This document shows, in pieces, positions 3,930 through 35,210 of a stretch of DNA of 64,000 nt (position 1 is the first letter of the stretch; each line of letters opens with the position of its first letter). The notes beneath the pieces are model-generated. The model was given only the letters and a program-made list of their open reading frames with translations. It made no database searches and had not been told where the DNA came from. The DNA is taken from positions 248,001-312,000 of the forward strand of contig QPGO01000061.1 of assembly GCA_008632985.1 (NCBI GenBank). The letters run 5' to 3'. A program made the position numbers and the translations under genes. This DNA is from Psammoneis japonica (lineage: Eukaryota).

Positions 3930-4224
3930 GGTGGCACCTGTGCCAGCAGGAAAACAGAGTCATGTGAGAAATCACAAATTAAAAATGATGTCTCGGTCTG
4001 TGTTGACGACAACACATGGCCGTTGGAAGCATGGAGACTGGCCATGTCTCCTCACTGCTTGTGCACTCACTGATGCCAGGCGACGTCAATTGTCATGCAC
4101 CCTCCAATCGACCGGCATTCGTCGTCGTGACCCTGCCACATTGGTGTGATCATCTCTTCACAGTTGTTCAATGCTTTTCGTCAAACTGAACCTGAGTTGA
4201 CGACTTGGCTCTGACAAAGCGAGT

Positions 4225-4456: not shown

Positions 4457-4573
4457 AAAAAAGTCAGCGTTGAGCGTTGATTTCACTCGCCAACGTCAAA
4501 GTTAGTTGTACAGTACAGTACTGTACAGTGCTACACAGCATGCCTCTTGTTCTGCGATCATTTTAACATCCGT

Positions 4574-6026: not shown

Positions 6027-6029
6027 GCA

Positions 6030-8391: not shown

Positions 8392-9835
8392 CACAAGTTA
8401 AATAAATACGTCAGCGTTGAGCGTTGAGTTTCACTCACCGTCGCCGATAACGTCAAATTTCCGTCGCCACTTTTTCAGTTCGCGTACAGTACTAGAGAGA
8501 GTATGTCCACTTTTCATGCGATTTTCCCGTCACAAAAGCATTAGTTATGTGTTAAGCAACCTACGAACCTTTTTGCATTGAAATTTGCGATCCTTGAAGA
8601 CTTTTCGTGAGCAGTGCCAAACTCTTGGAACAGTGCAGCAGCGCCGGGTGAACCGAATGGCACTGGCGATCGTCATTGTGGACTAGCGGCATTCAGACCA
8701 AGACCGCGAAAAAGAGGCTATAGAACAATTCAGCATCAAAAAGTAAGTGCACAACATCACAGAGGCAATGAAGTTACTCCCAACCGCTGTCGCTGGGCTT
8801 GTGATGTCAGTTTTGTTGTCATTTTCGGCAACCGCAAAAAAGTTAAGAACAAATAAATATGACGGCTACAAAGAGCTACTCGCAGCAGACGATGAGGCAT
8901 ATTGCTCAAGACTTTTGAGAAACATGGAAAGCATGAGCAGTCCTGTAACAGGTATTCCCGAGGAAGCAGAATGCGTTGTAGACGAGGATTGCATTCCAGA
9001 GTTTCCTCCAACACCTACTCCTGCGCCTGCCACTCCGGCACCGTCTCCGGATTGTGATTTAAATGAAGATTGCGCAAGATGTGAATCGTTTGAAGATTGT
9101 GCTTATCTTGATAGAGACTTTAATCCAGAAACACGTCTCATCACAGTCGGGCAATGCGGAGAGTTTGTGGAGCCACTGGGTTATCGCGTATGCACTGCTC
9201 TAGAAGTCGGGGTCACCGAATACTTCTGCAAAATAGATGGCACTTGTGGTGAAATCCAAGCAGGCCCCGGGGATTGTTGCAAGATTGATTGCAGCGATAC
9301 GTCACAACCCGGAAGAAAATGCAAGTACTCCAGGTGTTGCAGAAATGTGAAATGCCCGATTCGATGTGGGAGAGAATTTGGACCACGGTAATGTATTTTC
9401 TACTTTTGAGATCCCTTGCTAGCACGAACTAGGGATCCATCACTTCTTTTATTCAATGCAATATCTGATTTTAATCATTTCATAAAGTCGATTTGCTTGC
9501 TCTCGTAAATACCCATACTTCGCGGATCACCCTCTAGGCTTCAATAGTTCCCAACATTGTAAAAGCGTCCTTCGCCTCTGGCAAACATTATTTATGCACA
9601 GCGCTTCATAGTTTTGAAGACACACAGTGGACGGCTCCTACCGAATACTGTAGAAATATGGATCTCCCATCATTTGGCTGTAATAATCCCATTTCAACTT
9701 TGCATCCAAAGTCGTTGCTCGCTCCGCAACCAAGGCAAATCAGCTGCCACCCACAACGATTCAATTCCGCTTGGCGGAGTTAACTCTTTGTGGAGGCCAC
9801 ATAGAAACTGATTGCTTTGTCGTTTTTCATGGAAC
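8392..9835 (+). repeat. Segmental duplication copy 2
   Basis: Near-identical to 4574-6026 outside the central coding segment. Confidence 0.95.
8768..9391 (+). CDS. Secreted Cys/Pro-rich protein, copy 2 (full length)
   Basis: Same signal peptide and RLL/SMS motif as copy 1, with a complete C-terminus ...CCRNVKCPIRCGREFGPR. Confidence 0.8.
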   Translation: MKLLPTAVAGLVMSVLLSFSATAKKLRTNKYDGYKELLAADDEAYCSRLLRNMESMSSPVTGIPEEAECVVDEDCIPEFPPTPTPAPATPAPSPDCDLNEDCARCESFEDCAYLDRDFNPETRLITVGQCGEFVEPLGYRVCTALEVGVTEYFCKIDGTCGEIQAGPGDCCKIDCSDTSQPGRKCKYSRCCRNVKCPIRCGREFGPR

Positions 9836-13009: not shown

Positions 13010-13890
13010 GTGAGTTTGTGCGTTTGGCCGACCGACCGTGCGTCCTGTCACGTTGTGCGGTGCGGTGCGATGCATGAAGAGGAACATCTCAACTTGCATC
13101 TTTGGAGCGTCTTGTCTCCCCCGTGCTTGCCCTGTCATGGTGTCCTCTGTGTTGCACCACACAACCTCAAGAGAGGCATCACCCATCATTGCACCCCAGC
13201 TCATGAAGAGCCCTTGCTTGTTGTTTCCCGAGCAGCTCTGCCAAGCGGTTCTTTTTTCTGCAATGAGCAAGAGACATGACATGAGCAATGCCTCTCCAGC
13301 TCTGTGGCATGATGAGCATGCTTGTTGCCAGAAAAGAGAAGCTGAAAGCAGCACTCACTCAGTCTCCAACATGCTGAGAAAGATGTGTTTTTTGCTCTCT
13401 CCATGCCTCCACTTGTTCTTGTTGGAGGGGAGCAATTGACGGCTCCTTGTGGTGGCCAGCGGCCATGTCCCACACATCCCGCGCACTTGCAATGCGACAT
13501 GCCAAATGCCCAAGAGTGTTGCTGCCCTGCAGACACATTCACTGGGTCTGTTGTTCCCAGGCATTGTCATTGGCAACCCTGTTCCTTCCACCACCATGCC
13601 ATTGCTTTGTCTTTTTGTTGCTTTGAGCAAAGTTCACTCTCCAAAGCCCAACTTGACATTGCGTCAGGAAGCAGTGCTCCCTGACACCATGAGTCATCAA
13701 TCAAGAGCAAGAGTGACCCGACAAGTCATGGGGAAGAACTGTGTCTGGAACAATCTGTCTGGATTTTCTTCCATTGCGGAACGCAACCGCAGCCAGCAGT
13801 CCAAGAGAATCCTTGTGTCGTCCCCAGCAAAAACGATTGTGAACAACTGCTGCTTTGGCTCTCAGTGCCAAAGTGCGCAACAACAACAAC
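13010..13890. repeat. Degenerate TpA/CpG-depleted repeat-derived block
   Basis: Essentially no TA dinucleotides and strong CA/TG excess between two normal genes. Family not recognised. Confidence 0.55.
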
Positions 13891-16498: not shown

Positions 16499-17662
16499 TC
16501 ACATTTCTCCCTCCTCACTGCTGCTGATGCTGTGCTCATCATCATCACAACACGTGCCTAATGATGACGACGACCACCACCACCAAGAGCTTCTTCCTTG
16601 ACAACAATGACCCGACTTGCAGTCACGATTGCGATAGCAAACGTCCCCATTCTCCATGCCCAAGGAACAAACGTTATTTATACAGTACGAGTCCAAACAC
16701 TCGGAATCCACATGGCACGCATGTCCAACCCTCCATCCGTTGGTGCCAAGGGGATAGACGTTTCGGTCGAGATGTGCCTCGAATCGTTTCATATACCAAC
16801 GTATACTGTGCGCATACGGTGAAAACAGCCACCACCAAAACAAAAAGAAACGGGGAGGCGATTGGCCCTCGCCATAATGGACAAGACCACCGGGATCATT
16901 GCCCAAGAGGAATGTTTGTCCACCATTGTCGGCTAGATTCAAAAAGGGTACTAAATCATACTTCAATATCGAGTCCGTCTTGTACTTGACTGTGTTGCGG
17001 AAACGATAGTATTTGTTGGAATCAATGAGACTACACTCGCCAACAATGGTTCCAGGTTGACCAAAGGTAATGACCGTGGGCTTGACATCATCGCTGTTGT
17101 CATCCCACCAAACGGCTGCCGCCAAGGCCGCCATAGATCCGCCGCGAGAATGACCCGTCAAGACAACCTCGCAATCACTGCATGTGGCAACACAATCACG
17201 AATGGCTTGTTGGAATGCCGTTCGAAACGATGTCTTTTGCAATCGCCGTACATATCCGGCTCGTGCCGTACAGCATTTTTCATTAGAACAAATTGGATCC
17301 AATCGCAAATCAAAATTGGGTAACCAATCCACAAGACTGTCGGTTCGTGTTCCTCGAAAGACGCCCCAACACACATCGGCTTCCTTTAACACCATGGCCT
17401 TGTCGGGTTCGTCCACAAACAAAATTGCATCATCCGGCTCGCTATTTTTGCCGAGAAAAATGTCGAGTGTCAATTCAATCGCACGTGCACTTGTTTCCAC
17501 CACGTGACGAGTCAACACAAAGTCGTTGTTGGTGGTGTTTGTACTGTTGTCATTCTTTGCGTGGATCAAATCAATCGACAAGAAACAATAGAATAGTATG
17601 AAAAGTAGTACTAGCTGTGCTGACGTTGCGATGGACAAGTTACAGCGGCAAAGGACCGGCAT
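16499..17662 (-). CDS. Class 3 lipase, secreted/membrane-anchored, with Cys-rich C-terminus
   Basis: VFRGT, VVLTGHSRGG (GxSxG), ITFGQP, D-LVP and AHS motifs, plus an N-terminal hydrophobic segment. Confidence 0.88.
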   Translation of the reverse strand: MPVLCRCNLSIATSAQLVLLFILFYCFLSIDLIHAKNDNSTNTTNNDFVLTRHVVETSARAIELTLDIFLGKNSEPDDAILFVDEPDKAMVLKEADVCWGVFRGTRTDSLVDWLPNFDLRLDPICSNEKCCTARAGYVRRLQKTSFRTAFQQAIRDCVATCSDCEVVLTGHSRGGSMAALAAAVWWDDNSDDVKPTVITFGQPGTIVGECSLIDSNKYYRFRNTVKYKTDSILKYDLVPFLNLADNGGQTFLLGNDPGGLVHYGEGQSPPRFFLFWWWLFSPYAHSIRWYMKRFEAHLDRNVYPLGTNGWRVGHACHVDSECLDSYCINNVCSLGMENGDVCYRNRDCKSGHCCQGRSSWWWWSSSSLGTCCDDDEHSISSSEEGEM

Positions 17663-17809
17663 GACAGCGCTTCTTTCTCATGGGCAACCTGTTGGCATGA
17701 TGTGCAACGTTTGCAATGGCTATTTTGCACCTTCATCCGGGTTTTCTTCAACCGTTTCCGAAAACGGTCGCTGCGCTCCTCCTCTGTCACCATTTTCACG
17801 CACCGAAAT

Positions 17810-20800
17810 CGCTTGCCTCACATCACCATTGTCACATTGTCAAGCCTTTGACTCTGGAATGCTGTTGACAATTTTCTGGTGGCTGCTGCTTTTGCAATGG
17901 TGTCTGACAAATGAATCGGTGTTCATTGGCACTCTTGACTGCACTTCTCTTTCATTTTGAGCGGGTCTGGTGCTGGTGCTGCCTCCGCCACAGCACAGTC
18001 TTTGTGGCCCCGCACTCCTGTGGCCTCTGCTCAGAATGACACCAAGGCAATCTCCAAACTCACATTGCCCTGCCTTTGTCAGGGGCAAAAGACCACTGAT
18101 CATGGAGCCCAGCCCTCTGTGCCCAGCCAGCCAAGAACCTGCAGGCGCAGGTGGTGCATTTGTGCCTGCGCTGATCACAGCATGCTCAAATCCTTTGATG
18201 GCAGCATGACATCGGCAGAGGCTGTGGGAAAAGAGATTATGATGTGTGACAGCAGCAGTGGGCACAGAGCTCAATTGCTGCTGTGTCATCTCTGCTGGGC
18301 ACACTTCAGAGTCTGTCTTGAGCTCTGTTGCCACGACCAGTCTGAGTGGCGAGTCTTGTGGGGCAAGCACGTGTCAACATGTGAAATCTTTTGTCAGATT
18401 GTTTTTTGCCTCAACTCCACCAACTTGAAAAGAGTCCAAGACAGCATGACAAAATGGCGTCAAATTCTTTGCAGAGTCCCACACACTGTTCAGCCTCGGC
18501 AACTTGTGCAACATGAGCACCAACCCTTTGCAGACACACAAGCAAGGACAGCCACACAATGAACCATGTGAGAACAGATTTGGAACAAGCTCAACAAGCT
18601 GATTCATTTTGCACATTGTTTGGTTTCATGCACTGTCCCATGACAAAGCATGCTGTGCACGCTGCTTCACACAGTCAAGCTGCTGCAGCTGTGCTGGGGG
18701 AGGGCACAAGAGAAAAAAGCATGTCATGAGTGCAAAACTTTCAACAGAGGCAGAGAGGATGCCGCCAAAAGCATTTGCAGAAAAGTTGGTTGAAAAAGCA
18801 TGGAGCAAATGGCTTCTGAAACAATGAGTTGTGACACATGAGTGACAACAAAGACCAGTTTGACACAAAAAAATGTGACAAATTCAGTGGCATCATCATC
18901 TCAGCCAACTTTTGCTTTCTGTTCCTGTCTCTTGTTGTGAGACAAAAAGACCATGACACAAATTACATGTGCACATTCATCAGATGCAACTGTGCCATCC
19001 ACAGTGGAAACAAGATGCTGGGTGGTTGTGGGTGTGTGTGTGCTGCGGTCATGAGAGCACCGCAAAAGTCAACAAAAACAACAGCACACTTCCTGACCTC
19101 TTGGCATGTCTAAACACAGCATGACAGTCAACAGCAAAAACAAATCCAACATGTTGTCCATCATGTTGAGCACTGTCTCTTGTCATTGTGTGACAATGCT
19201 CTCAACTTGATTGACCATGCAGCCATTGATGCACAAACAAGGACCAAGTGCCACAGTGTGGGAAGCGCTGTTTTTGTTCTTGTGCTCAGCATTGCATTGG
19301 ATGCAAGTCCAAGTTGCAACATCATGTGCTGCAAATTGTGCAGCTTTCCACGTGAAGTGATTTCCTCATGGGTTCTTCCCATTCCAAGTGAGGACAATGC
19401 CATGAAAGAGAGTGCAAATGTGCTGCACAGCATGTCAGGATCATTCAGTGTAAAACATTGAGCCAATGTGTCCAACAACAAGAAAAGGAGCCACAAAAGA
19501 GTGCACATGTGCAAAAGCAGTGGCAGTTTCTGCAAACAGACTGACAACATTCCATGGCAATCTCCATGATCTGTGTCATGTGACAGTCATCTGTCAAGGT
19601 GTCACCAGAGCAAATGTCGGTGCCATCAATGTTTTGATGCACCCCCCATGTTCAGGCACAGCTCTCTTGCCAACTTGCTTGTGCATTCTTGGAGTGCACT
19701 GCACACCATTGACTTGATGACCCTGGCCCTGACCCCGACCCCAAAAGTTGGGAGCTTCACAGAAACAATTTGACACAGCACAATGCTTGTTTCACCCGCC
19801 TCCAGCACCGTTGCCTCCAGAGATTTGGGTGCCTTTCTTCAGTGCCTCCAATCACCAACCTTCCAGTGGTCCACCATTCCATGATGAGAAAGAGAGCGGG
19901 ATTGTCTTCCAGATCACACACGCTGGCTGTGTTTGGGCGACAACCACTGGAGCAAGAGGGTTGCCATCTGTGTGGTGTGTGGCAGCATTGGGAGGGGTTG
20001 GGGACAATGAGGGAGACAATGTTCACATGGTGGACCAGTTGGTGTCACCTGTGGGAGGCAGCAGGGGAGCATGAGAAAAATGTGTGAGTTGGCAGTTGGC
20101 AGCACCCCACATCATTGTGGCTGTGCTTGGCACAAAATGATGAAAGAATCATCAGAGCACATGCTGCATTGAGGGCAGGAGGAACAGTGTCATGCATGCC
20201 AGTGGACCAGAATGCAGGGGCCACATTGGCACTCCTGACAGCATCTGAGGGAGGCAGTGGAGCATGGGGGGAAATGTGTGTGTTTGCAGTGTCAATTGTT
20301 GTTGATGTTGTTGGCACAAGACAACAACAGCAACAACAGCACCTGTTGTGCCAAGAGCATGAGCAACAGCATCAAGCATGCTGGTCAAAAGAAATGCAAG
20401 GATGGCTTGGCATTCATGACAGCATGTGTGAGAGGCAGTGGAGTGTGGAAATGACAGCATCAGCTTGCACCATCTCATTTTGCGTGCATCAGGTTGTTGA
20501 CAACAGAAGCAGCAACAACATTGCCTGTTGTGTCAGTGTTGTTTGCAACAGTGTCAGTGGGAACAGTGTCCTGGAAAGGCATTGGGGAAGAATCATGAGG
20601 CACCATCATTGTCAATCTGATGTGATGCGTGCCTTTTTTGTGGTTGCGAGAAAGGCCAAAAAGTGTTTTCATCTGGGGTCGGCTCTGGGCCACTTGACAT
20701 TTTGGGGGAGAGTGTGGTTCAGAATTTTTCCTGTCATTGTTGGCATTTGTGTGCAAGTGATGATGCAAAATTCAGTGATGTGATGACATGTAAAATCTTC

Positions 20801-21648
20801 ATGATGTGAGCGTTGCATCACCGCGACATAAAAAAAAACACATTCTCCACTTGCAAAGGGATGGCTGATGAGTTTGTCAGTTTGTTGCCCTGGGATGTTT
20901 GCAGTGCCCCGCTGATTGTGAACGCCTGCCCATCCCCCACTGACACTTCTGTCTGATGCCCAATTGCTCCCATCTGTGCATGCTCTGCTGCGGTGGCAGT
21001 GGCACATGCAGCAAAGCCCCCATTCTTCAAGTTGGCACTTTTCTTGTTGCTTTGGCACAATTGGGAATGCCTGCAACATTGCCATGGCAGAATCAACCTC
21101 ACCCCAAATCTGCGCACAAAAGATCCCAAAGAGCATGTGTGTTGTTTGCCATGTTGGGAAGATCTCTGTTTTGCTTCTTGTTGTCTGTTGCTTGTCATGT
21201 CTTTTCAGCTGTCCTCTTTCAATTGCTTCAAGAGAAAATGCTGACAGTGTCGGCAGATCAGCACGCAAGTTGAATCCAGTGCTTCCGTTCCTCAAATTCA
21301 ATGAAATGGAAACCCAGTTGCACAAGGACGGATTCAACGATGCCCGCCAGAAAGCTGTGGAGAATCCAGAAAACCGGCATGATCACAAGCGCTTTCAAAT
21401 TTTCAAGGAACTGGCCAGTTGCAGCAAGTTGGCATGTGTGGGAGGACCGTGTTGCACTGGCAAAAGCAAAATTGCTTGCGCAATCACCATTTTTCAGCAA
21501 GAGGACTGTGTCACATGCTTGATTGGTGGGAACAACCAGCGGGAATTTGAGTTGGATCTTCTGACAAAAAGACAAAATGCCAGATCCTGAGCGGCTCACA
21601 TTTCATTGCAAATGCTTGCATGGTGGAAATGGCGCCAAGCTTCTTTTC
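17810..21648. repeat. Degenerate TpA/CpG-depleted repeat-derived block
   Basis: Almost no TA or CG. A short segment at ~18570 (CAGATTTGGAACAAG.TCAACAAGC) recurs at ~34358. Confidence 0.6.
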
Positions 21649-21924
21649 TGATAGAAATTGAAGGCAAATGGCAAGAATTCAAACAATGACTCCTCACTGC
21701 TGTCTAAACAGCAGATGAGTCTCTGCTCAGAGACCATCACAGGAGCCGAAAGACGTGTGAGTCGGTGTGATCGGGCTACTGTCATCATTCTTGTGAGCCT
21801 TGTGGCTCGAAAGCAAACTACATCGCACGCGAACGCGCGGAACTAAAGCACACAAAACTGTGCACGGTGAGCTAAATGGCGTGCAACATTTCGCGCGCAC
21901 CCAAATCCTGTTCAAATCCTGTCA
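21649..21924 (-). repeat. 3' LTR
   Basis: TGATAGAAAT...CCTGTCA, colinear without gaps with 28451-28726. Confidence 0.95.
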
Positions 21925-21929
21925 CTCCC

Positions 21930-24900
21930 CAGTTTGCTTGAGGAGCCACAGAAACAGATTCGACTTTGGATGGAATGAAGTTCCAGAACATGAGGGGGCG
22001 GAGAAGGTCCCAGATTTGGGAGTGACCCCAATGCTTGCTGAGAATGTCAGCAGGGTTGCGGGAGCCTTCGATGAAGTGGAGCTCAAGGCAACCAGAGGCA
22101 ATTGCCTCATGCACACGGTGGAATGACAGTGCGGTGTGTCACTTGTGCAACTTGGAGTGCGGGATGGTGGCACTGTCTACAACTGACTTGTTGTCACCGA
22201 ACATGCAACTGACATTGCGGATCGGGACGCCAAGGCAGCGCAGGGTGATGCGCAGGTCGACAATCTGCTCGACACAAGTCCTTGCGGCAACAAATTCAGA
22301 CCCGCAGGTCGCAGTCTCCATGGTGGCTTGCTTCTTAGAGAACCAATCAGCCGGGAATTTGTTGAGGAAGTGGAGCATTCCCATGACAGAGCGTCCGGTG
22401 AGCATGCAATGGTGCAAGTTTGCATCGATGTAGTGGGTGGCAGTGACGAACTTGCCAAGGGGCGGTGGAGCGTCCTTCGGGACCATCTCTTCTGCTTCAC
22501 CGCACACGGAATGCATCCATTCATGGGCCGGAGCAGGGAGATCTGAGTGGTCGGGATCTTCCGTGCGAACGCGAAGAGCGCCATGTCGCATCTTGGAGAG
22601 GTGCCCACAGACGCGTTTGGCACGATCCAAGTGGCCTTGACGGGGTGCAGCTCGGAAGCTAGAGAGTGACATGACGGCCGTGGCAATGTCAATTCGACCA
22701 AGGGACACTGCCCATTGGAGTGAACCAACAAGAAACTGGAACTTGTGAATGCCATCGGGCCCCAGCAGTTCGGAAGTGTCCAGTTCGGGGTGGTCACCCT
22801 TCTCCAGAGGTGACAGGGCGTTGGTGGCAGGTTTCTCCCCAAACAGTCGGGCGCAGCTGTCGACCATGCACTCGATGCACTTGCGCGGAGACAGGCACAA
22901 GGTGCCGTCGGGATCCCGGGATAAGTCACAACCCAGATGGAACTCAATGGGTCCCGCACCCTTGAGCTTGAACTTGTGCTTTTCCGTGAGAGTGTCGACA
23001 AAAGATTGAGGGTCCTTCATGGCAATGGCGAGGTCATCCACATAAACGGCAATGTGTTCACAGTGGTCGCCGTTCCTGCGCATCCAAATGTCGGGTTCGG
23101 CGCGGCAGGGGAAGAAGCCTTCAGCTCGCAGGCAGTCGGCGAAGTGCTCGTGCCAGCGGAGACCGGAGCTGCGCAGTCCATGCATTTCCTTGTGGATGAC
23201 AAGGATGTGTCCTTCAAGTTTGCCAAATTCGGGTCCGGCTGCAATGTAGAGCTTCTCCTTGGTGGTGGCTTCAAGGTGGGCATTGCCAATGTTGGTGGCC
23301 CATGTCTCCAACTCGTTGAGTTTGGCCAGGAAAATCATCAGCCGAAGGCCATGGAGGGAGACCACTCCGGAGTAGACACTGTCGATGGGTGCGTCCGTGA
23401 GGTGCCCATCGGCTGCGAGTCGTGCCTTGTGGCGACCGTCATGTTTCACATCGCACACCAGGTGCACTCGGATCTTCTTGTGTCCCGCAGGAGGAGTGGA
23501 AGACTCGAAGGGCCCGCAGTCATGGAAGACTTCGCATTCCTCGAGTTGGTCCATCTCGAGATTAGTTGCGTCTCCCCATTTGCGGTTGCCGTTGTGTTCG
23601 TCTGGTGACATGGCGTGTTTGCAGTTCCGGGGAATTTCGTGTCCGCACTTGCAGCGAGGTGCAGTGCAGAAGGAGCGAAGCTTGGCTTGGTTGGCCATGC
23701 GAAATGGCTTCTTCTGGCGCCTCGCGATGGTGCGTCGGAACCGCTTCCAGCCATCAGTGTCGAGAAGTCCATTCTCTCGTGCATGGATGGCGCAGGTGAC
23801 GGGGTCGTCCTTGGCGATGATGGCAAGAGGCTCGGACGTGATCTCCCCACTTTCCCATTCAAGCACAATGTTGTAGCTTGAGCCTTTCCAGGTTGGGTCA
23901 TGAGGCTTCAGAGGTCCTTCGTGTGACACGATGCATCGAAATTTCCAAACAGCAGTGTCTTCGTCTTCTTGCTCAATGTGATTCATGATGTCGTTGCAGG
24001 CAAGGACTTCCTTGCATTCGTCATTGTTGACAGAGCAGACGAACCCAGTGAGCTCGGGATTGCCGTTCACTTTCCATTCGTGGTCTTCGATGGCCTTGAC
24101 GATGCGAGCTCTGTGGCGTTGTCCGTCCTCTTGTGGCTGCATGAGGAAGGTGCGTCCGATGATGTCTTGCGGATCGAAAACTGGCATCTTGGGTGTCCTG
24201 ATCTCCCCATCAGGAGAATCGACGGGGTTGTCGTCATGGCGAGATTTGATGATGGGTTCAGGTGGCTCCCCATCAGGAGGATCAAGATGCAGGTTTTGAA
24301 TGGCAGGATCGGTGGCAGCGGATCGTACGTTGGACCGGCAGAGGATCTTCTGTGTCTCGTCAGAGAGAATCTTGAAGGTCATCTGGTGGCCGACGTGCTC
24401 AGCAATGCCAACAAAGCGTCCACACAACTCACGGGATTCGGGCGGCCAATCGGAGTCATCGAGGTGGAAGTGCACGGGTTCCCACCAGTGAAAGCGAAGC
24501 AATGGGCTGATGTCCGGGGTGGAGCCAGTGAGAGTCTCGAGGGGCGTGCACCAGTGGAGACGCGGGGACGCTGTGTGGTTGAGTGTGAAGCACACGCACA
24601 TGAGCGCCAGCAGCCATGTGTGGGCAGGCGAACCGAAACAATCCATGACAGTGTTCGCCATGTGCTTCACGGTCTGGTGTCGACGCTCGGCAAAGTTTTG
24701 GTGTTGCTGGTGAGGCTCACTTTGCCAGCTGGAGATGAAGAGGGCTCGCAGGATCCCGAGCACCTTGTTGCTGATCTCAACTTGAGCACGGTCGCCAATG
24801 AGTTTGGATGGGGCACCACGCTCCCGGATCTGATCCTCGAGTGTGTTGACAAACTCTTTGTCTGTCTTGGTGCTGTAGACGTCAGTGACGGCAGACTCGG

Positions 24901-26719
24901 TGCCAACAAACAGTTGGGCGCTGGTGCAACCAGAGTCGACGGCCGGGGTGTCGGCATGAACGGTGTCAGTGGCGACAGGCTCATTGCGGCGGTGCACATT
25001 AAGGGCGGGGTTGGGTGATTTGCAGGCCTTCCTAAGGTGTGTGCCGGCGGGCATGCGGACGCACTGCGTGGTGCAGTCAAAAGTGCGACGGACCGCATCG
25101 GCAGGGAGGAAGCCAAAGCAAGGCCAAAGAGACTCGAAGGGGGGGTCCTTGGGCTGCACAGTGCGCTCCGGGGGCGGAACGTCGTCGTCCTTGGGGTCAA
25201 TCGCGTGCAGATGACACTCGCAGAACACGTCGTTGTTCGGAATGAGGTGATCATCGAGGGCGGACGCGTGATCGGCAGACAAGGAAGCGGACATGATGGT
25301 CTCGTTGACAACGACACGATGACGGCAGTTGCCGCATTCGTCAAATGGGTTGGCAGTGGGATCATCCTGCAGGTCAGAGATCGCGTCGCACCACTGGTCG
25401 TCATCAGTGACAGAGTGATCGAGGATGGAAGGATCCCATGTGTCATCACCGGTGAGGATGACATGGGGCAGGGTGTCCCATTCGGCATCAGTGCAAGGTC
25501 GCATGGCAACACAAGGCAGGCCGCCCTTGATGTCAATGGGGATGACACAGCCATCAGGAGTGGCAACACGTTGCAAGCCATTGGGCACCTTGACAGAGCG
25601 ATCGTTGACATCCTGTTTGCACCATTCGAGCTGGCCGCAGGAATGAATGGTCTTGCCCTTGCCCGTGTGTGTGCACTGATGGAGGATGGCGATGACAGGA
25701 CCACGCTGGGTCTCAATGACGGCACCAGCGGTGACAACAGGGATGTCCACCAATTGATGGTCGTCAATGCCCTGAACGTCGACTTGGCGAGAGGTGCGTG
25801 CAATGACGTGAACGTCGTCGCCAGCAATGCCGCCGTTGGCCCCACGATCGACTAGAGCACCAGTGCGTGTGGAGCGATGAGCAGAGGCAGAGCAAATGAC
25901 ATTGTGGTTGTCAACGCGGCGGTGAGTGCGGCCGTCAAGTTCCATGTCATTGGAAGGAGCTGGCGGAGCAGAGGGAGCGGCGGATGGCACCGGTCGACCA
26001 GCGTTGGGGGCTTGGTTAGGAGACAACAGACGTTGCAGATCACCGGGTGGCAGTGGCTTGCGCTTGGTGAGGTGCGCCAGGATGGGATCATCCAAAGTGG
26101 CACCCACATTTGGAGCGGGGTCACCAGAGTCAGCAGGAGTCGTGTTGGACAAGTTGACATCACCGTCGCTCCCAAGGCATTGGTCGTGAAGGTTGGCCGC
26201 AATGGACTCATGGCAGTTGCTGGCTCGCGGGTTGTGGGGAGGCGGACGAGAATGCTCAAGGATGATCACCTTGGAGGAATGGGGCAACGAATCCCAAATC
26301 TGTTGGTGGTCGGGAGGGAGACGTTTCCATTGGTCACCGGTGAGGCTGGGACCACGGGTGCAGGCAGCATTGGCCTGAAGGACGTCAATGTCACTGTCAA
26401 TGTCGTAGAACACATCGTCGGATGGTTCCTCGGAGCAGACGTCATGTGCGTGTGTGGCACGTTGGGGAGCTCGAGGTGTCGTCTTGGGTTGAAATGCACT
26501 GTCGCACTGAGCCGCCGCGGAGAGGAGCAAGCCACAGCATTGGTCGCATGTGAGGCTCTTGCCACTCTGCGTACGATGCTGATCAGCTTGGTTCTTGACA
26601 GCACGGAGTTCCTCGACAGGGTGTGCGGCATTCTCGAGCATGACGCGCTTCTGTCCTTCAGAGAAGTGGTCACTGGCCGGGATGAGTGCCTCGCACTTGC
26701 GCAACTCAGACCTTTCCAA
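21930..26719 (-). pseudogene. gag C-terminus plus pol (protease, integrase, RT, RNase H)
   Basis: 1526-aa ORF with LVDRGANGG, VATDT, SEPHQQHQNFAERR, DVKHDGRHKARL, YVDD, DANL and ETAT(C)GSEF. A nonsense TGA at 22139-22141 (KLHK*HTALSFH, expected R) is followed by NPADILSKHW. Confidence 0.93.
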
Positions 26720-27543
26720 GCACCATCACCAAGACGTGCGGTGGTGAGGTGCGTGAGCAAGGTGGAGGACTCGACAGATGCGTGGGTGGAGGCGAGCGCA
26801 TGCTCAGACAAGGCGCGGCAGACGGTCTGGGCGTCAGAAGACCCCACATTTTCGCGAATGAGAGCCTTGCCCTTGTCGGTGAGAAGAATGCGTTCGAAGA
26901 CGGCGAACATGCACTTTTGCTGTGCAGCAAAGAGCAGTTTGTCTTCGGGGCTGGTCGGTTTGTACGACGAGTCTAGAATGCACTCGACGTCTTGGGCATG
27001 GGCTTGTGCCACAAGTGAGGTGTGCCAAGTGTGCCACTGCTTGTCGGATTTGAGAGCCGTGAAAGTGGTGGGGTCACGCTTGATGCCTCGCTTGAAGTCT
27101 CGCACTGGGTCGCGTGCCTTGGTCGGGTTGGTGACATGCGGAGGTGCGAGGGGTGAGCTGCCGATGGACACAGAAGACATGTGGTCGGGGCTGAGGCGGC
27201 AGGCAAGGAACTCGTCATGCGTGAACAACGAGGAGTCATTGGCAATGTCAAGACCTTTGTGTGCTTTGACAATGCACAGACTAACTAGAGCTGCTAACAT
27301 GTTCTTATAACCACGGGGCAAAGGGATCACATTGGTGCCGTTGTCACACTCAAGCGAGTCGATTTGGGACGGCATGAACGTGAACAGTTCTTGATGCGAG
27401 TCCGTGCCGTCTTGGGCCAAAGCCGAACGAAGAGGGCTCCCAGCACCTTGGGCAAGCACGGTTCCAACAACGTGCTCGAAACCATCGGTTTGTGGCTGAC
27501 GAGTGAGAACCATGGCAGACAAAAGTGGTGTCAGGACAAGCAA
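26700..27543 (-). pseudogene. gag N-terminal part
   Basis: FKRGIKRDP, W..WH, Q.CMFAVF..IL.TDKGK and DAQ motifs typical of diatom copia gag. The frame changes near 26712. Confidence 0.8.
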
Positions 27544-28450
27544 TTCTTGTTGGGAAGTGAAGGTGGACTTGAAGCTTGGGTGAGAACAGACTTGACTTGA
27601 AATGGACTTGACTTGAAATCTTGAACTACCTTAAAATCAGAAGTCGCCAGGCTTTGCTGTCCCGTTCGTTGTCAAGTGCTAAACTTCCCATCCGGTCCGT
27701 AGAGTTGTGCCGGCACGTCCGAACCCGCAGCCAGCGGCGCTTTGGGTTGCTTGCGAGCGGAGCAGCGGGTTGTAAACCCCTGCAGGCAAGCTGACCAGAG
27801 GTGGACAAGACCCCCGAACCGTTCTTATTTTGTGTCGGTTGGATTTCCCGATCAGGCTGGCCAGTTGACGCAGGCGTTGGGCACTGTGGACGAACGAACA
27901 AACGCGGGAAAACACCCTTGCCCCAACGCAGGCTGCAATCACGGCTGCTTGCTCTCACAGTTGTCCTCATGGACCTGGCAGAACTGCAGAGCACCAGTGG
28001 TCCGGGGTGGATCAGGTGCAATGGACTCGGTGTGCTTGTGGAGTGGTGGCAAAACCGCAGTCCGAAGAGTGGGCACAAGTTCTTGGCCGTGAAGACATGC
28101 ACACATGCACATGTCTTCAGCAACGAAGACACTTGGACATGTGGGGTTCTTGACCGTCAACCGATGAATGGGCACATCGAGGGATGAGGATCAAGGACAG
28201 ACTTGGATGTGACCGTTGACGCATGTCTTCAGTGATCAAAGGTGGCACAATCAATCCAGACATCCAGCGGCAAGGAGACTTGACGGTGACGTTAAATTCC
28301 TGCCGATGCCTGGCATTGAACACGCGCAGACTTGCCGATGTGTGTAGAGTGCACATGGAGGTCCACGCAGAATTGAAGTGGCGTTGCCGGCAAATCAACG
28401 ACGACGATGGCGGTTGCTCAATGGGTTGACAATGAGCAAGACTGTCAATC

Positions 28451-28726
28451 TGATAGAAATTGAAGGCAAATGGCAAGAATTCAAACAATGACTCCTCACT
28501 GCTGTCTAAATGGCAGATGAGTCTCCACTCAGAGACCGTTGCAGGAGCCGAAAGATGTGCAAGTCAGTGTGGTTGGGCTGCTGTTGTCATTCTTGTGAGC
28601 CTTGTGGCTCGAAAGCAAACTGCATCGCGCACGAACGCGCGGAACCAAAGCACACAAAACTGTGCACGGTAAACTAAACAGCGCGCGACATTTCGCGTGC
28701 ACCCAAATCCTGTTCAAATCCTGTCA
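28451..28726 (-). repeat. 5' LTR
   Basis: Partner of 21649-21924, followed by TSD TTTTC. Confidence 0.95.
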
Positions 28727-31427
28727 TTTTCTTTGCGCTTGATGAACTCATGCAGAGACACAATCATGCCCAAATTGACTTGCCAAAAATGGACATTGAG
28801 GGGTTCGAATTTGGCACTTTTTGACACTTTCTACATGGGTGCGCCAGCAACGGCGCACACTCCCAATGCAGATCCTTGTCAAAATTCACCACCGGACTCA
28901 ATTTGCAGAATTGTTTCCTTCCAGATTAGAGGACTTCAAACTCGAGGCAGATCTCATCTACACTGCTCAGGCTCTGTTTGATCTCGGCCATGTTGTGCCC
29001 AAATGCAACGACAATTGGATGTGCCTTTGTTGTTCAGAACTGATGTTGGTGAGGCTCCATTGCCAAACTGACAATGGAAAGTTGATGAAGAGAATCAAAG
29101 ATGGAGAAGTTAAATTCATTGGGATGAATCCTTGAGGTGTGGTGCAGGCGGCAGCACATGCACTGCATCTGACTCGAAAAGGTGTTGTTGCTGTGCAGAA
29201 GGTAAAATCACACAAAGCATTGTTGTGCATTCATTTGTTGCATTTGGAGTCAGGCTGAGCAAGCTTCGGCAAACAGTTCTGAGTCAGGCTTGAAAGAGAT
29301 CTTTTGGATCTTTGCGAGCTGTCTCTCACATGATGCAGGTGAGCACATTGCACTGGCTTCCCCAAGAATGTTGTGTGCCAAGGCTTTTCATTCTTGGTGG
29401 CTGGCAGTGTGCCAGCAGAGGCAAGCCGCCAATTTAAATCATGCACAGTGTGACAAATTGCTTGCTGCAGTCATGCATTGACCACACAAGGCAGTGTGCA
29501 CACTTGTGCTGCACATCTGTGAACCCTGGTTGGTTTGCTCTAAAGTCCAAAGCCTTTGCCTGTGTCTGGCGGGAAATGCTTGAGATGTCAGCAGATTGCA
29601 AGGATCATGTTGTGTCAATTTTTGTGGGGAACAATTTTTCCAGCTGTTTGAGCTCCTCAAGGTGGGTGAACTGAGTGCATTTTAGATTTTTCAAGAAAAT
29701 GGTTTTGTGCCAGCTCTGGACAGTCCTCATCACATGGGTTGTTTTGTCTTAGATGGAAATTTCTTCATTCATGTTGTGTGGGCGGTTTCATCAGGCAGAC
29801 CTTGCCACATGCCGGGTTGGTGGCCAGGAACACATGTCAGAGCATTGTCTGAGTTGCACGGAGTCAATGGTGGTGTTTGGTTGGGTGGCACAGTCTGGCC
29901 CACCAAGAGGCATGGTGCAGCCACCATTGATCTGTGACAAACAACAGGATGTGCAGGCACATGCACAGCCGCCGCAGCACCCCACACAGAGATGCCTTGT
30001 TCAGCCCCAATCAGATCAGTTGCCGGCTGGCCACCCAGCCATTTCTGGTCCCATCACATGGGATGCAGTGACTTTGAATCATCACAAATGCCAACTTCAA
30101 TTGTGAGGTGCACTTTTTTTATTTTAATTTTTTCTGAACTCTGCAACGTGACTCAAACAACAAAGAAGTCACCACTTGACATTTTGTTTGCCAAAAAACT
30201 TGTCGCACAAAATGCCGTCAGATGCAAAGGTCACAACTGCTGCAAAGCCAAAGGTTGAGAATGTTTGCATTTGCAATTGAGGTGATCTTCTTTGCTTGTT
30301 TGAGGTGCCAATGGTTTTTCTGAAGTCCAAGTGCCACTTCCAGTTGCTCGCATGCCTGCAAAAGCAGGGCACCAACAAACGATTAAAGTTCCACACACTT
30401 CCACTGCCAATTTCCATGAGAGACACATGAGGGCAAGCATGGCCCAACTGTCCAGTCTCTCTCTCTCTCTCTTTTGGCACCTGACAGATTGGACAAAGCA
30501 GCCAATGGTGGGGGCTTGTCAGCACCGAAACAACAAATGCAGACGTGTTCCAGTCCCAGGTGACACACAAAACGACAATCGATTTTGAATATAAATTATG
30601 TATCTATTAGTGTATGGAGTATTTTCATATAAAATACTTAAGCGGATTGGCTTTTATAGGCGTCTAGAGTATGAATAATTATGAAGAATTAAATAGTTTT
30701 TTGTGGGGTGTCAAATTCCTCATGGGATATGTATCATAAACTTCCTCAGTAGACTCAATGCTGATTGTACGTGTGTAGTCTTTATACATAAATTTCTTTG
30801 TAAGTAGAAAATATACTAAAAAGCATTGTAGAAAGATTTATTTAGTTAACATCCAAATAACGGCAATAATTTCGCCGAAAATCATCCGTTGTGTTACGAT
30901 TCGTTTGTCGCAATGAAAAACATTTGTGGCACAATAACAATGATTTTGCAACACTCACACGAGTCTTGTTAGTGTTGCAAAACATTAGAATTTGAATAAA
31001 TCTATACTTTTGGTGGTGAAAAACCGTTCGTAAGTCAGAGACCGCGCAAAAATCGCGCAAATGTCGTTTTTGTGCACGATTTGGGTCACGTGCGGCTGGG
31101 ACACACGGCATTTTGTCGCATTTGGCGACATTTTCTTAAATGAATTGATGATTTGTCGCGAAAAGACGCGAATTGCGACAAAATGTCCGGGTTGGCGATA
31201 AACGGGACAGAAACATTGTTTGGTTAAGTTACAAAATGATTGATGTCATTAACAACCAACCTGCACTTTGGCGATGTCGTTTCAATGAGTGGGGTGATTA
31301 ACAGAATTTGGCGATCGATGTCATCGACGAAATTTCATCTGACAAAATTTGTCGGATGCGACAAAATTTGTCATGTGAGACAAATTTTGTCGGATTTGTC
31401 GGACGTCCGACAAAATTTGTCGGCATC

Positions 31428-31628
31428 CGACAAGACACGACACGACAAGACACGACACGACACGACAAGACACGACACGACACGACAAGACACGACAAGA
31501 CACGACACGACACGACATGTCACGACACGTCACGACACGTCACGACACGACACGTCACGACACGTCACGACACGTCACGACACGTCACGACACGTCACGA
31601 CACGTCACGACATGTCACGACACGACGA
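31428..31628 (+). repeat. Tandem array (CGACA/AGACA 5-mers, then ACGACACGTC 10-mers)
   Basis: Directly visible. Confidence 0.95.
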
Positions 31629-31970
31629 CTCACGAACGAAACACCCACACCCCCCGCCGCACACGCCAACCGCTAACGTCTCTGTTGACACTGTGTCTCT
31701 TTTGCACGATGATGCAAAGCGACGATCATGCCGCTCTCGGCGGTCTCCAATTTTTTGATTTCGAAATTTTGCACCATTGTTCCATGTCCCCGAACATCAT
31801 GCTCTCGTCAACACCGGGACAACATCGTACGCTTCTACACAGTGGAACGGAATGCACCGGCATGCATTGCTGCACTGCACCTTTTGTCAGCAGGCAGCTG
31901 GGGCCTGGCTCTCCACTGGTCTAGCGAGCGGCAGGCGAATCTCGTGGAGACAGTGTTGCAAACGTCCGTC

Positions 31971-32086: not shown

Positions 32087-32402
32087 ATGCAACAAAATTT
32101 GTCGTACGTCGACAAAATTTGTCGCATCCGACAAAATTTGTTGCACGTACAACAAAATCGCCAAAACATCAATTGACAAGTGCAGTCTTCGCCGAAAGTT
32201 AAATTCATCACAAAGCACTGCAGTTGACACAACGTTTGTGTTTAGGACATGCCATCGCCAATTAAATGATGATTTTGTCTCATTCATCGCCAACGATTGA
32301 AATTTGTCTCAAAGGGCATTTTTCACGACAAATCGTCCAATTCATTTGTGGGAATGTCGCAATTGGCGACAAAATGCCGTGTGTCCCTGGAACACGTCTG
32401 CA

Positions 32403-35210
32403 GAGGAAAGAGCGAGCAAGTGTGTGGCTCAAGAAGGACAAAGTGAGTGGCAAGGTGACGAGTCAATTCTTTCAGTGAGCAGCGCCATTTTCTCTTCAAA
32501 GAAGGAACCTCACATGAAGAAAAAAATCAGCAAAAATGAGAAACAATGAAAAGCCATCAAAGCAATTGAAGAGATGATTGAGTTCTGGGATGCAATGAGA
32601 ATCTTCCACAATGGGGTGATCACAGATTGTGAGAGCATGAGCAGCTGTTTTGTTTGGCAGGAGAACAGAGTGGAAACATGATGGGATGGCTTGTTGCTTG
32701 GTCTCAAGGCCACCCTTTGCAGCTGCAAGGACACTGCTCTGTCAGACAAGGGGCTGCTGTGATGAAAGCTCTTTCCAACAATGGGAGCAACCTTTTTGTT
32801 TTCTGCATGGAGAAGGCACACTGGGAGATGATGGGCCATGGTGCATTCTTTCTTGAATGCTGCCAAAGAACATGACAGACCCATCTCCATTTGATTGCCC
32901 AAGCACATGTGGAAGAGTGTGTTGTCCAAAAAGTTGTCAGTGCTTGAGCAGAGGCCAAACTCGACAAACACAGAAAGCACAAAGCGTGCCACAAAACACA
33001 AGGCAGTGCTTCAACTGCTTTTTGCCAAGAGCTCAAGGCAAAATCTGAAAAAGGCAACAACAGAGCATGCATGAAAAAAGAGCAAGAGATCAAGGTTGTG
33101 GAAGTGATGCAATGGACAGCAAGAAGAAGGCAAAGCAACAGACAACAATCACAGCAAATGATGGCAATGCTTGAAATGCAAGCAAGAGAAAATTCTGTTT
33201 TGAGAAACAGCTTCTGCTGCTGTTTTTCATTTGCCTCCAAGTGATGCCCAGGCAGCATTGAGAAAAGTGTGCCCAGCAAACTCAGCATGCAACAATTTGA
33301 GGTCAATGTGGATTTTGTGTGACAGCACCAGAAATGGGTGGCTAGACGGCAACCAATCTGATGAGGATTGAACACATGCCTGTCCATCCTGCTGTTTGTT
33401 GTGGATCTGTGGGCGCAGCTGCAGGCTGTGCTGAGGTGTGGCTCCAACTGATGGGGCCAATTTTTCAACCCTTGCCCATGCTTCACATCATTGTGAGGCA
33501 CTGGCATCACTGCCCACAAACCTTTGTCTGTGCACTGCAGCAAGCCATGACCTCTCTCACGGAAACTCCATGTGTTCATGTGTGATGGACATGTGTGCTC
33601 CCTTGCAGTGCATCCTTCTAACTTCAGCACTGGGCCACAGCTTGACGGCAACTGTCATCAGCACACCCTTGTGTTTGTGTGCATGGCGGAGTGGGTGGTG
33701 TTCCTTGCCATGCAATGCCTGCCTCACAAGGCTGCCACACAGAACATGGGAATTCCCCAACATGGCACCCATGTCTTGGGGAACACTCTCCAGCCTCTCT
33801 GCTGCTCGCCTCCATCCCACCCCACACTCCTCCATCACCACATGTCAAGGGGTTGTGTCAAAAATTGAGGCTTTCCCATCAATGTTGTTGCACTGTGTCA
33901 AGGGCGGGTTCTCATGTCAAAGCAAGTCACCTGACTTGGGCTTCCATTGTGTCACCCAAGAATGTCAGTTGCCCATGTTCTGCAACTGTTTGACACAATC
34001 TCACAAAGACAGATTGCCTTGACACAAACAGAATGATGTCACAATTGCAGTGTCAGCCAATTTGACTGCACTCATCTGGTGCGTCACATGTGCATCACAT
34101 CTGCACTTTTAAATGGGCACCATTTGTGATTTTTCCATTTTGCATTTGCTTGTTGTGCAAAATCTGATGTGTTGCACATTGAGATGCAGAGTTGTTTTGT
34201 TCAAAGCATCAGCCTGTGATTGAGGGACAAAAACGTTGATGGACATCATTCTTGAAAGGTGGATGGACAGTTGGCATGTCCATTTGTGGCAAATTTTGTT
34301 TCCGTCCATGCAGCACACAAACACAAGCAAGAACAGCCACAATGAACTGTCTGAGCACAGATTTGGAACAAGGTCAACAAGCCAGTTCCAAAGTCATTCT
34401 CCAATGACAGAGTGTTGTTGCTCTTTTGTGGGCAACAAGCTGTGTGACATGCGGAGCCTTTTTTCTTGCATCACTTGGCAAGAGCTGACTGCCAAAAGGG
34501 AGTGGGTTGGAATGGACATGATTGTGGCCATGAGAAGTCAGAGAAAATGGGTTGCACAAGACAGCTGATGTTGGAAATGACAAAGTTCTCATCAAACTTC
34601 CCTTGAACAAAAGCACACTCTTGCCATGGTGGGGTCCTTGTTTCAGCAGAATCGTCCACTCAAGGTGGCAACCAGCCCCTGTCTTGGGCAAGTGAAGGCA
34701 CCTGCAAGGGAGAACCTTGACATGTGGTCAAGAGAACTCCCTTGCCTTGCCTTGCACATCATGTGGCATGCATTTCCTGAGTGTGCTGAGGTGTTTCTTG
34801 TTGTGGATGGTGCATGGATGACTTGTCATGTGTCACACAGCACTGACAGCTTGGAAGCATGCAGAGCACTCATCAGAGATCTCTGTGGTGCTTTCTTTCT
34901 GGTCATTCTGCTGTTCTTGTTGTTGGGCAATGCGCTCCACTGGTCCCACACCCCAAGTCTCGGTTCATTGAGGCTTTTCATTTTGACATCACACTGAGCC
35001 TGTTACACACCGGGCATTGCCATGTCTGGAGTTGGAGTTGCCGTGGGCTCACGACCGGGTGTGTTAGACGCATGGTGGGTGGTGGGAGTGGGCATGGGGC
35101 GAGCCTGCATTTTCGAGGGGCCATCCTGGTCTCACACCTAGAACAGTGATTTGTCAGTGTTTCTCTCTCTAGAGCACAGTCATTTGCAACAACAAGCACA
35201 CAAGGATTTG
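32403..35210. repeat. Degenerate TpA/CpG-depleted block
   Basis: Near absence of TA and CG. Family not recognised. Confidence 0.55.

Follow-up and report, generated by a model that had tools for sequence, protein, structure and literature searches.

Evidence for region-restricted TpA-to-TpG/CpA hypermutation in discrete domains of a diatom genome

To our knowledge, permanent hypermutation of transposons has long been thought to be an essentially fungal phenomenon based on C-to-T chemistry. The closest described counterpart of the pattern reported here comes from mutation-accumulation lines of the chlorarachniophyte Bigelowiella natans, in which, as stated in the text of a 2026 bioRxiv preprint by Mettrop et al., 231 of 302 nuclear single-nucleotide mutations fell into integrated giant-virus and virophage regions (10.64898/2026.01.13.699255). 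According to the same text, all but one of these 231 mutations were A:T-to-G:C changes, all of those on TpA; they arose at about 6e-7 per site per generation, in some of the lines only. The TpA-poor coding sequences of B. natans are described as enriched in reverse transcriptase and DDE domains, and an ADAT2-like adenosine deaminase is proposed to be responsible (10.64898/2026.01.13.699255). Here, we analyze a 64-kb stretch of the diatom Psammoneis japonica (contig QPGO01000061.1, positions 248,001 to 312,000; "the window" hereafter, to which all coordinates refer), which contains a Ty1/copia-type long terminal repeat (LTR) retrotransposon at 21649-28726, referred to as the flagged element. 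A sequence-only reading of this DNA had suggested that a separate A:T-to-G:C mutator, one not known to it from diatoms, acts on repeats. In the literature searched, the same TpA-to-TpG/CpA signature was found only in the B. natans preprint and nothing was found for diatoms, so that the process as such is no longer undescribed. Our results indicate that the window most probably records region-restricted TpA-to-TpG/CpA hypermutation of chromosomal DNA in discrete, sharply bounded domains, accompanied by a slower loss of CpG.

Loss of TpA and tyrosine in the flagged copia element

The flagged element comprises the following features, with TA and CG contents given as observed/expected (o/e) values:

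21649-28726, minus strand: Ty1/copia-type LTR retrotransposon, probably hypermutated (TA o/e 0.13, CG o/e 0.84), with an RVT_2 domain and TG...CA ends
21647-21924 as reported, the element proper starting with the TG at 21649: LTR 1 (repeat family D4, 278 nt, 90% identity)
28449-28726, with the CA end at 28726: LTR 2 (repeat search and LTR comparison)
22139-26719, minus strand: pol reading frame of 1526 amino acids, with Tyr replaced by Cys or His
26671-27513, minus strand: part of the polyprotein on the gag side, shifted to a different frame by a break near 26660-26671

Direct LTRs, TG...CA ends, a perfect 5-bp target-site duplication (TTTTC at 21644-21648 and 28727-28731) and an RVT_2 domain within a gag-pol polyprotein identify it as a Ty1/copia element. 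Together with its hundreds of marine homologues, these features resemble those of the diatom copia-like (CoDi) LTR retrotransposons. The sole Pfam match of the pol frame is the copia-type reverse transcriptase RVT_2 (PF07727, E 4.6e-22); at its default threshold, Pfam gave no match to an integrase domain. A tblastn comparison with the 1859-residue homologue P0001 placed residues 1-283 in frame -2 and residues 296-1850 in frame -1, giving a collinear match over residues 1-1850 with one frame break. Because of this break, the copy is defective, which, together with its many replaced Tyr (see below), sets it apart from the CoDi elements. The length of its pol frame is no sign of activity, as the frame is open largely because the loss of TA removes TAA and TAG codons and cannot create them; indeed, 13 open reading frames (ORFs) of at least 150 amino acids, on both strands, overlap the element.

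As noted in the sequence-only reading, the element is almost free of TA: its 7,078 bases contain 43 TA dinucleotides versus about 338 predicted from base composition, with TG and CA raised to o/e values of 1.41 and 1.57. TA o/e is 0.35 in both flanks, and the GC content is 0.56 in the element versus 0.47-0.48 in the flanks. The same reading had stressed that many CG were kept, which is true of the 458 CG counted but has to be amended, since part of the CpG has been lost, both from the LTRs and from Arg codons (see below). The element sits nested within an older block in which both TA and CG are scarce.

The coding consequences are most obvious for tyrosine. As counted previously, the pol frame has seven Tyr (0.46%), next to 59 Cys (3.9%) and 84 His (5.5%). 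A homologue search with pol residues 560-1526 returned 1602 matches (best identity 69%), and the 120 relatives listed have median contents of 3.87% Tyr, 0.96% Cys and 3.54% His, with a minimum of 2.86% for Tyr. When pol was aligned with 45 homologues, the first of those stored that exceed 1700 residues, taking as conserved a column shared by at least 80% of them (657 columns), the 37 conserved Tyr columns read Cys in 19, His in nine, Phe in three and Tyr in only six cases, while the other 19 residue types were kept in 81-100% of their conserved columns. The codons at the replaced Tyr columns are TGY or CAY, as proposed before, and the intact relatives encode Tyr rather than Cys or His at these sites. 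Among the conserved Arg columns, 6 of 49 read His, Cys or Trp. With a threshold of 60%, pol shows Cys in 25, His in 14, Tyr in seven, Phe in four and Trp in one of 51 Tyr columns. Cys results from an A-to-G change on the coding strand and His from the same change on the template strand, so that the ratio of 25:14 shows that both strands were hit. Nor did the loss of TA pass a selective filter, as it is equal across all three codon phases: the phases 1-2, 2-3 and 3-1 retain 1.5, 0.9 and 1.5 TA per kb in pol and 2.8, 2.1 and 5.0 in a second copia element of the window (see below), 20 environmental relatives of which have medians of 12.2, 12.3 and 16.2.

The timing of the changes can be read from the LTRs. 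The two LTRs of one retrotransposon are identical at integration. Those of the flagged element now differ at 27 of 278 positions, exclusively by transitions, which shows that the change of TA was mutational and occurred after insertion, in chromosomal DNA. Twenty-five of the 27 differences lie at TA- or CG-derived dinucleotides: 12 form six CA-versus-TG pairs, four oppose TA to TG/CA and nine oppose CG to TG/CA, leaving two others; three TA and 11 CG are shared between both copies. A CA-versus-TG pair implies one change in each LTR copy, from either a TA or a CG start. We estimate that about 29% of the CpG was lost per LTR, so that, in a two-copy model, about one of the six pairs is expected from CpG and about five from TpA. 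At insertion, each LTR would then have carried at least about 17 TA, a normal content, of which about 70% have since been lost per copy. Set against a background of two differences in roughly 200 remaining positions, the per-site rate would be raised very roughly 200-fold for TpA and very roughly 70-fold for CpG, both figures being based on small numbers.

A TA-normal tandem duplicate of host DNA served as a control. Its copies (4566-6026 and 8385-9835; about 1.5 kb, 88% identical) have normal TA and an ordinary spectrum, with 109 differences between 4700-6026 and 8519-9835 that consist of 50 transitions and 59 transversions and include no CA/TG pairs. The excess of TA-to-TG/CA changes expected from the sequence-only reading is found in the LTR differences and in the Tyr columns of three genes, and the control duplicate lacks the pattern.

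TpA-poor domains across the window

Two further coding regions show the same kind of change:

1-4189, minus strand: second copia-type element, unrelated to the flagged one, truncated at the window edge and probably hypermutated (TA o/e 0.13, CG o/e 0.74)
49630-51494, minus strand: 5' two-thirds of a methionyl-tRNA synthetase (MetRS) pseudogene, including introns, probably hypermutated (Pfam PF09334, E 1e-30, domain at 49940-50659; tblastn)
48647-49629, minus strand: 3' third of the MetRS pseudogene, normal in TA and CG (tblastn), with a 2-bp frame slip near 49440
50690-51080: MITE-like (miniature inverted-repeat transposable element-like) insert of about 390 bp in the hypermutated MetRS intron, with terminal inverted repeats of about 30 nt and normal TA and CG

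The second copia element has 242 homologues (best identity 59%), some of them with PF07727, and its ten Tyr columns conserved in 40 homologues read His in four, Cys in two, Phe in two and Tyr in two cases. The MetRS copy was traced by tblastn with homologues over the whole gene, on the minus strand from about 51494 to 48647, with a GT...AG intron and several frame slips, because of which we regard it as a pseudogene. In its TA-poor part, compared with 30 homologues, the 14 Tyr columns read Cys in ten, His in two, Met in one and Phe in one case, with no Tyr left, and only two of ten Arg columns are kept, the others reading His (3), Cys (2), Trp (1), Gln (1) and Thr (1). In the TA-normal part, by contrast, both Tyr and all five Arg are kept. 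Thus, in three unrelated genes, conserved Tyr has turned into Cys or His, at 28 of 37 columns in pol, 6 of 10 in the second copia element and 12 of 14 in the TA-poor part of MetRS, versus 0 of 2 where MetRS is TA-normal. Within an exon, the sequence switches near 49690: an ex-Tyr codon is located at about 49690, CpGs are present again from about 49683 and a first TA appears at about 49597, so that the losses of TA and CpG end at a common boundary. The MITE-like insert either arrived later than the process or was exempt from it.

The Tyr-to-Cys/His footprint also exists in other copia families in public data, possibly even from this species. Among the 120 listed homologues of the second copia element, ten contain less than 1.7% Tyr, all from source 'jgi' (P0411, P0416, P0427, P0435, P0439, P0462, P0475, P0480, P0498 and P0503). 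They have Cys or His at most of 12 conserved Tyr columns but keep Arg (for example, Cys 8, His 3, Phe 1 and Tyr 0 in P0462; His 6, Cys 3, Phe 1 and Tyr 0 in P0503), whereas five normal controls retain Tyr in 10-12 of the 12. A scan of JGI/ENA metagenome contigs, based on the alignment of the element's relatives, covered the best 80 of 179 relatives at 79 loci. This selection favors intact copies and therefore carries little information on how common the process is in nature. Across these loci, TA o/e ranged from 0.38 to 0.87 and CG o/e was mostly about 1.0, with TA o/e below 0.25 in 1 of 1539 1-kb bins, and no strongly TA-depleted relative was present among the best 80 of 179. The most depleted one, L010 (o/e 0.38), combines a milder TA depletion with CpG loss over positions 1-2000 (TA o/e 0.20-0.39 in 500-bp bins) and has a TA o/e of 0.05 in its final 338 bases (7501-7838); it may be a partly mutated copy.

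Along the 64-kb window, for which TA and CG o/e values were computed in 1-kb bins, TA depletion is switch-like, since 32 of the 64 bins have a TA o/e of at most 0.22 and 26 of at least 0.44, with only six boundary bins in between. TA-poor DNA makes up ten blocks, which together hold 137 TA in 33,762 bp (4.1 per kb), compared with 1263 TA in the remaining 30,238 bp (41.8 per kb). The longest gap without TA measures 1340 bp (P about 5e-25 at the normal TA rate), and chance is excluded as the cause of the scarcity. The block edges are sharp to within about 10-50 bp, the resolution allowed by the spacing of TA. Relative to the DNA outside, TA is down 10-fold and TG/CA up 1.39-fold in the blocks, and TAA and TAG occur 1.9 and 1.1 times per 1000 positions versus 9.7 and 8.4 outside. 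Two kinds of block can be distinguished: the GC-rich copia elements at 1-4189 and 21649-28726, in which most CpG is still present, and unclassified blocks that have lost CpG as well (CG o/e 0.16-0.37), with TG/CA up to about 1.8-2.0. The latter comprise:

17710-21648: older TA- and CG-poor block (TA o/e 0.03 and CG o/e 0.17-0.19 in 1-kb bins), no family recognized, nearly single-copy, contig depth about 60-210
28727-30501: continuation of this older block beyond the nested LTR element (composition and run contigs)
6027-8021: TA- and CG-poor block (TA o/e 0.03, CG o/e 0.25), starting exactly where the duplicated host segment ends (6026)
13057-13837: TA-free block between two host genes (781 bp, 0 TA, CG o/e 0.37)
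32249-35070: TA- and CG-poor block (TA o/e 0.03, CG o/e 0.21)
37889-42857: TA- and CG-poor block with internal 186-nt and 123-nt repeats (TA o/e 0.06, CG o/e 0.28)
51130-54997: TA- and CG-poor block (TA o/e 0.05, CG o/e 0.23), of which 51130-51494 is the start of the MetRS pseudogene
55386-56692: TA- and CG-poor block (TA o/e 0.01, CG o/e 0.16)

The tandem repeats at 40577-41134 (186 nt) and 40138-40430 (123 nt) differ mainly by CA/TG pairs, five to six per copy comparison, suggesting that their duplication preceded hypermutation. A fragment at 54706-54886, in the block at 51130-54997, matches the flagged element's LTR in inverted orientation with about 74% identity and is probably the solo-LTR remnant of a related family. 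A Pfam scan of 150 of the 151 stop-to-stop ORFs of at least 80 amino acids in the TA-poor blocks (that at 29442-29681, minus strand, being left out) found no transposon domain in the older blocks, MetRS being the sole clear match; matches to EF-hand, IL23, LAMTOR5 and Pox_A14 fell below their cut-offs and were ignored. The TA-normal host genes encode an rRNA dimethylase, an aldehyde dehydrogenase, a lipase and methyltransferases. The named best matches of the rRNA dimethylase are all diatoms (67-78%; Fragilariopsis, Chaetoceros, Nitzschia, Thalassiosira, Cyclotella and Pseudo-nitzschia), followed by Saprolegnia with 54%, so that the host genes themselves mark the organism as a diatom. TA is mildly scarce throughout the host DNA of the window (o/e 0.45-0.77). 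At 31378-31662, 10-nt units of the ACGAC/GTCAC type form an array in the window's only CpG-enriched spot (CG o/e 1.57 in the 1-kb bin), and a TA-normal palindrome of 457 bp (54998-55454; self-match 82%, arms 91% complementary) is found between two TA-poor blocks.

The idea of a separate A:T-to-G:C mutator acting on repeats is thus supported with regard to its TpA signature, but its target needs to be redefined: part of a host-type MetRS copy was hit, while the 1.5-kb host tandem duplicate, the MITE-like insert and the palindrome were spared.

The extent of TA loss depends strongly on the flanking bases. The following tetranucleotide counts, pooled over both strands, compare TA-poor with TA-normal DNA and are followed by the ratio of their frequencies:

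TTAA: 66 versus 142, ratio 0.42
CTAA/TTAG: 32 versus 94, ratio 0.30
CTAC/GTAG: 24 versus 163, ratio 0.13
CTAG: 14 versus 120, ratio 0.10
GTAC: 10 versus 214, ratio 0.04
ATAG/CTAT: 3 versus 131, ratio 0.02
ATAC/GTAT: 1 versus 197, ratio 0.005
ATAT: 0 versus 176, ratio 0

For a targeted A, read per strand, the preference for the 3' neighbor is T > C > G > A. An equivalent reading is a targeted T with the 5' neighbor preference A > G > C > T, so that the flank data cannot separate a chemistry acting on A from one acting on T. Of the seven Tyr codons that survive in pol, six follow a C, a flank at which survival exceeds the average. Selection was considered as the reason why the tyrosine of the YVDD motif survives and was dropped, because the flank explains the survivors about as well. 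The choice between His and Cys shows only a non-significant trend with the 5' base (4 His and 3 Cys after A; 10 His and 22 Cys after other bases).

Proposed process and rival explanations

We propose that a domain-confined process converts TpA to TpG or CpA, equivalent to an A:T-to-G:C change at the A of either strand, and continues until almost no TA is left. CpG is converted to TpG/CpA in the same domains, but at a lower rate. The changes affect coding and synonymous positions, introns and non-coding DNA alike and end within tens of bases at the domain edges. Copies are inactivated through the conversion of Tyr to Cys or His and, by the loss of CpG, of Arg to Cys, His or Trp, although their reading frames remain open, since TAA and TAG are removed without new ones being produced. 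As for the target, we modestly favor silenced, CpG-methylated chromatin nucleated by transposons over duplicated DNA of any kind. The leading candidate for the chemistry, put forward tentatively, is a TadA/ADAT2-like deaminase that would turn adenine into hypoxanthine where a T precedes it on the 5' side; a modification or misrepair of thymine is unlikely, and error-prone synthesis more so. GC-biased gene conversion was dropped as an explanation, as it would act on all A/T and runs against the CpG-to-TpG direction. It is tempting to speculate that diatoms carry an enzymatic, chromatin-domain-directed DNA mutator, a TpA-specific adenine deaminase that erases TpA from anything within a silenced, CpG-methylated domain, be it transposons, old repeats or trapped host genes, and represents an old and widespread defense arm of the SAR (stramenopile, alveolate and rhizarian) lineage, although the odds lean slightly against a proposal of this breadth. 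If true, the diatom mutator would be a mirror image of the repeat-induced point mutation (RIP) of fungi, with a signature common to Bigelowiella.

Several points weigh against region-restricted hypermutation as proposed here. It is based on comparative inference from one 64-kb window, and the sequence check relies on one public sample (runs X1-X3; contigs of X1, word depth about 60) that is possibly the assembly's own source. The baseline of the flank analysis is host DNA, a proxy for the ancestral composition of the elements that may differ from it. The sharp edge inside the MetRS exon (about 10-90 bp) is unlike the prediction of simple heterochromatin spreading. Finally, the other copies of the flagged family rarely retain the TA that its copy has lost. 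This LTR family is very abundant, with 12,339 contig pieces of at least 90% likeness and a summed depth on the element of about 60,000-166,000 versus about 60 on its flanks, neither figure being a copy number. Relative to the flagged copy, other copies show 51 A>G, 60 T>C, 39 C>T and 44 G>A changes and 21 transversions. The underlying difference table comprises 219 sites, with 40 rows listed and 35 of these within the element. In only 2 of the 35 listed rows do other copies have TA where the flagged copy has TG or CA (23604, 90% of depth; 23454, 11%); in 12 rows, other copies have kept CG where the flagged copy has TG/CA, and CA-versus-TG doubles occur in two. At most 83 of the 219 sites could carry A/T elsewhere, compared with about 170 lost TAs, and part of the internal TA loss could thus have been inherited from an already mutated progenitor.

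The rival that fares best, although we consider it rather unlikely, is a hypermutation triggered by homology, in which a duplicated stretch is detected and mutated as in RIP and the MetRS edge marks the end of a partial duplicate. A very high-copy LTR family is indeed among the targets, as is a second copia family, and an abrupt edge within an exon is expected of a duplication breakpoint but hard to obtain by chromatin spreading. However, the 88%-identical host tandem duplicate should then have been affected, whereas its spectrum and TA content are ordinary, and the old TA-poor blocks are now nearly single-copy (depth about 1-3.5 times), which divergence could explain.

With a slightly lower probability, the coding region inherited most of its TA depletion, the family going back to a hypermutated progenitor that still multiplied, alone or with help in trans. 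The scarcity of TA in the other copies described above fits this scenario, as does the existence of subfamily-like shared differences. It is disfavored by LTRs that would have had a normal TA content at insertion, by a TA loss that is equal at synonymous and non-synonymous phases and by a copy that has 28 of 37 conserved Tyr replaced and its frame broken. Moreover, if the flank largely fixes whether TG or CA results, independently saturated copies would converge, making shared states less telling.

Two further explanations are very improbable. The first, an ADAR-like or APOBEC-like editing of RNA or cDNA before integration, is suggested by the retrotransposon nature of the flagged element. Deaminases of the ADAR/APOBEC kind also prefer a 5' U/T. 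The Discussion of the B. natans preprint likewise gives this preference (10.64898/2026.01.13.699255). However, the LTRs diverged after integration, both strands were hit, and the changes extend to a host pseudogene with an intron and to non-coding old blocks. The second, equally improbable one is a sequencing or assembly artefact arising from miscalls at modified bases in methylated repeats, TA and CG being the dinucleotides at which modification-induced transition miscalls would be expected. Against this, contigs of run X1 match the TA-poor DNA where it is single-copy, as the sequence-only reading would predict of independent reads: five matches over 17001-21676 (1650, 392, 232, 1382 and 1132 nt) contain 0, 0, 0, 0 and 3 differences, and one over 28706-30000 (1295 nt) contains two. 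The five differences are CpG-type or other transitions, none at a TA site. This agreement excludes consensus slips, although the run is not fully independent of the assembly. In addition, the pattern is shared by the 10 of 120 listed homologues that stem from other records, and the changes are saturating and flank-dependent. Finally, a selected or ancestral avoidance of TA by the elements, for instance to escape nucleases or to avoid stop codons, fits the mild scarcity of TA in host DNA but can be practically dismissed, as relatives have a TA o/e of 0.38-0.87 and normal Tyr, LTRs, introns and a pseudogene are affected, and the two LTRs differ from each other.

The depletion of TA has several practical consequences. 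Gene callers will over-predict, as the near absence of TAA and TAG leaves long ORFs in all six frames, 151 stop-to-stop frames of at least 80 amino acids across the blocks of this window alone. Dating by LTR divergence will overestimate ages many-fold. Conversely, maps of TA and CG o/e could serve as a cheap means to chart silenced domains in diatom genomes, and the half-mutated MetRS pseudogene provides a specific place to ask what sets a domain boundary. Moreover, the process may reflect a naturally occurring editing of chromosomal adenine that strictly requires a 5' T and has a legible 3' preference, which would be of interest to the biology of genome defense and as a natural counterpart of engineered adenine base editors.

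Comparison with known mutational systems

RIP shares with the window a permanent, saturating transition hypermutation of chromosomal transposons that is confined to defined segments, inactivates copies and can be captured by dinucleotide indices. However, it generates TpA from CpA by C-to-T changes and raises the AT content, whereas the window loses TpA by A-to-G changes, with GC rising to 0.56. As to the duplication trigger of RIP, high-copy families are hit here, but the 1.5-kb, 88%-identical host duplicate is untouched. Diatoms are reported to possess a methyltransferase, DNMT4, that is related to the RIP enzyme RID and whose function is given as unknown (PMC9998398). This relationship might be relevant to the CpG component, though not to TpA. 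The deamination of methylated CpG, in turn, matches the conversion of CpG to TpG/CpA in the same blocks (CG o/e 0.16-0.84) and of Arg to Cys, His or Trp, but it cannot remove TpA and, judged from the LTRs, has been several-fold slower than the loss of TpA.

Among the deaminases, TadA and ADAT2-ADAT3 offer a fitting chemistry, with A converted to I and read as G. Their natural tRNA target, A34, follows U33 and thus has a 5'-U/T-A context. DNA activity has been described for one member, ADAT2 of amphioxus (PMC10354150), and fungal Tad2-Tad3 is reported to edit mRNA at UA sites (PMC11087585, PMC4817773). Unlike the UAG preference suggested by the fungal example, the 3' preference in the window is T > C > G > A. 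APOBEC3 and ADAR provide an example of deaminase-driven hypermutation in defense against retroelements in animals, but their substrate is cDNA or RNA, of which they modify one strand ahead of integration, whereas the changes described here followed integration, affect both strands and also occur in an intron-bearing pseudogene.

The closest match remains B. natans. Both cases involve the same dinucleotide, the same products, both strands and discrete regions of non-host origin, with TpA depleted and CpA and TpG gained. The window shows A:T-to-G:C transitions, with TpA turning into TpG or CpA depending on the strand, plus a CpG component. The changes are concentrated in discrete, mostly mobile regions, two of the ten blocks being copia elements and part of the MetRS pseudogene forming the exception. 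The differences are equally clear. B. natans is a chlorarachniophyte and thus belongs to another branch of the supergroup than diatoms; de novo events were seen there, as opposed to a comparative footprint here. The Rho value reported for its NCLDV (nucleocytoplasmic large DNA virus) region is 0.45, compared with saturating o/e values of 0.00-0.13 over about half of the 64-kb window, where LTR retrotransposons and a portion of a host-type gene have been targeted. The loss of CpG is co-extensive here; the main text of the preprint contains no mention of CpG, flanking context, diatoms or stramenopiles, and its supplements may hold flank data (10.64898/2026.01.13.699255). New relative to B. natans are thus the saturation, the targeting of LTR retrotransposons and of a partly mutated host-type pseudogene, the co-extensive but slower loss of CpG and the strong flank hierarchy. 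The footprint in a diatom suggests that the process is neither a one-strain curiosity nor restricted to integrated viruses.

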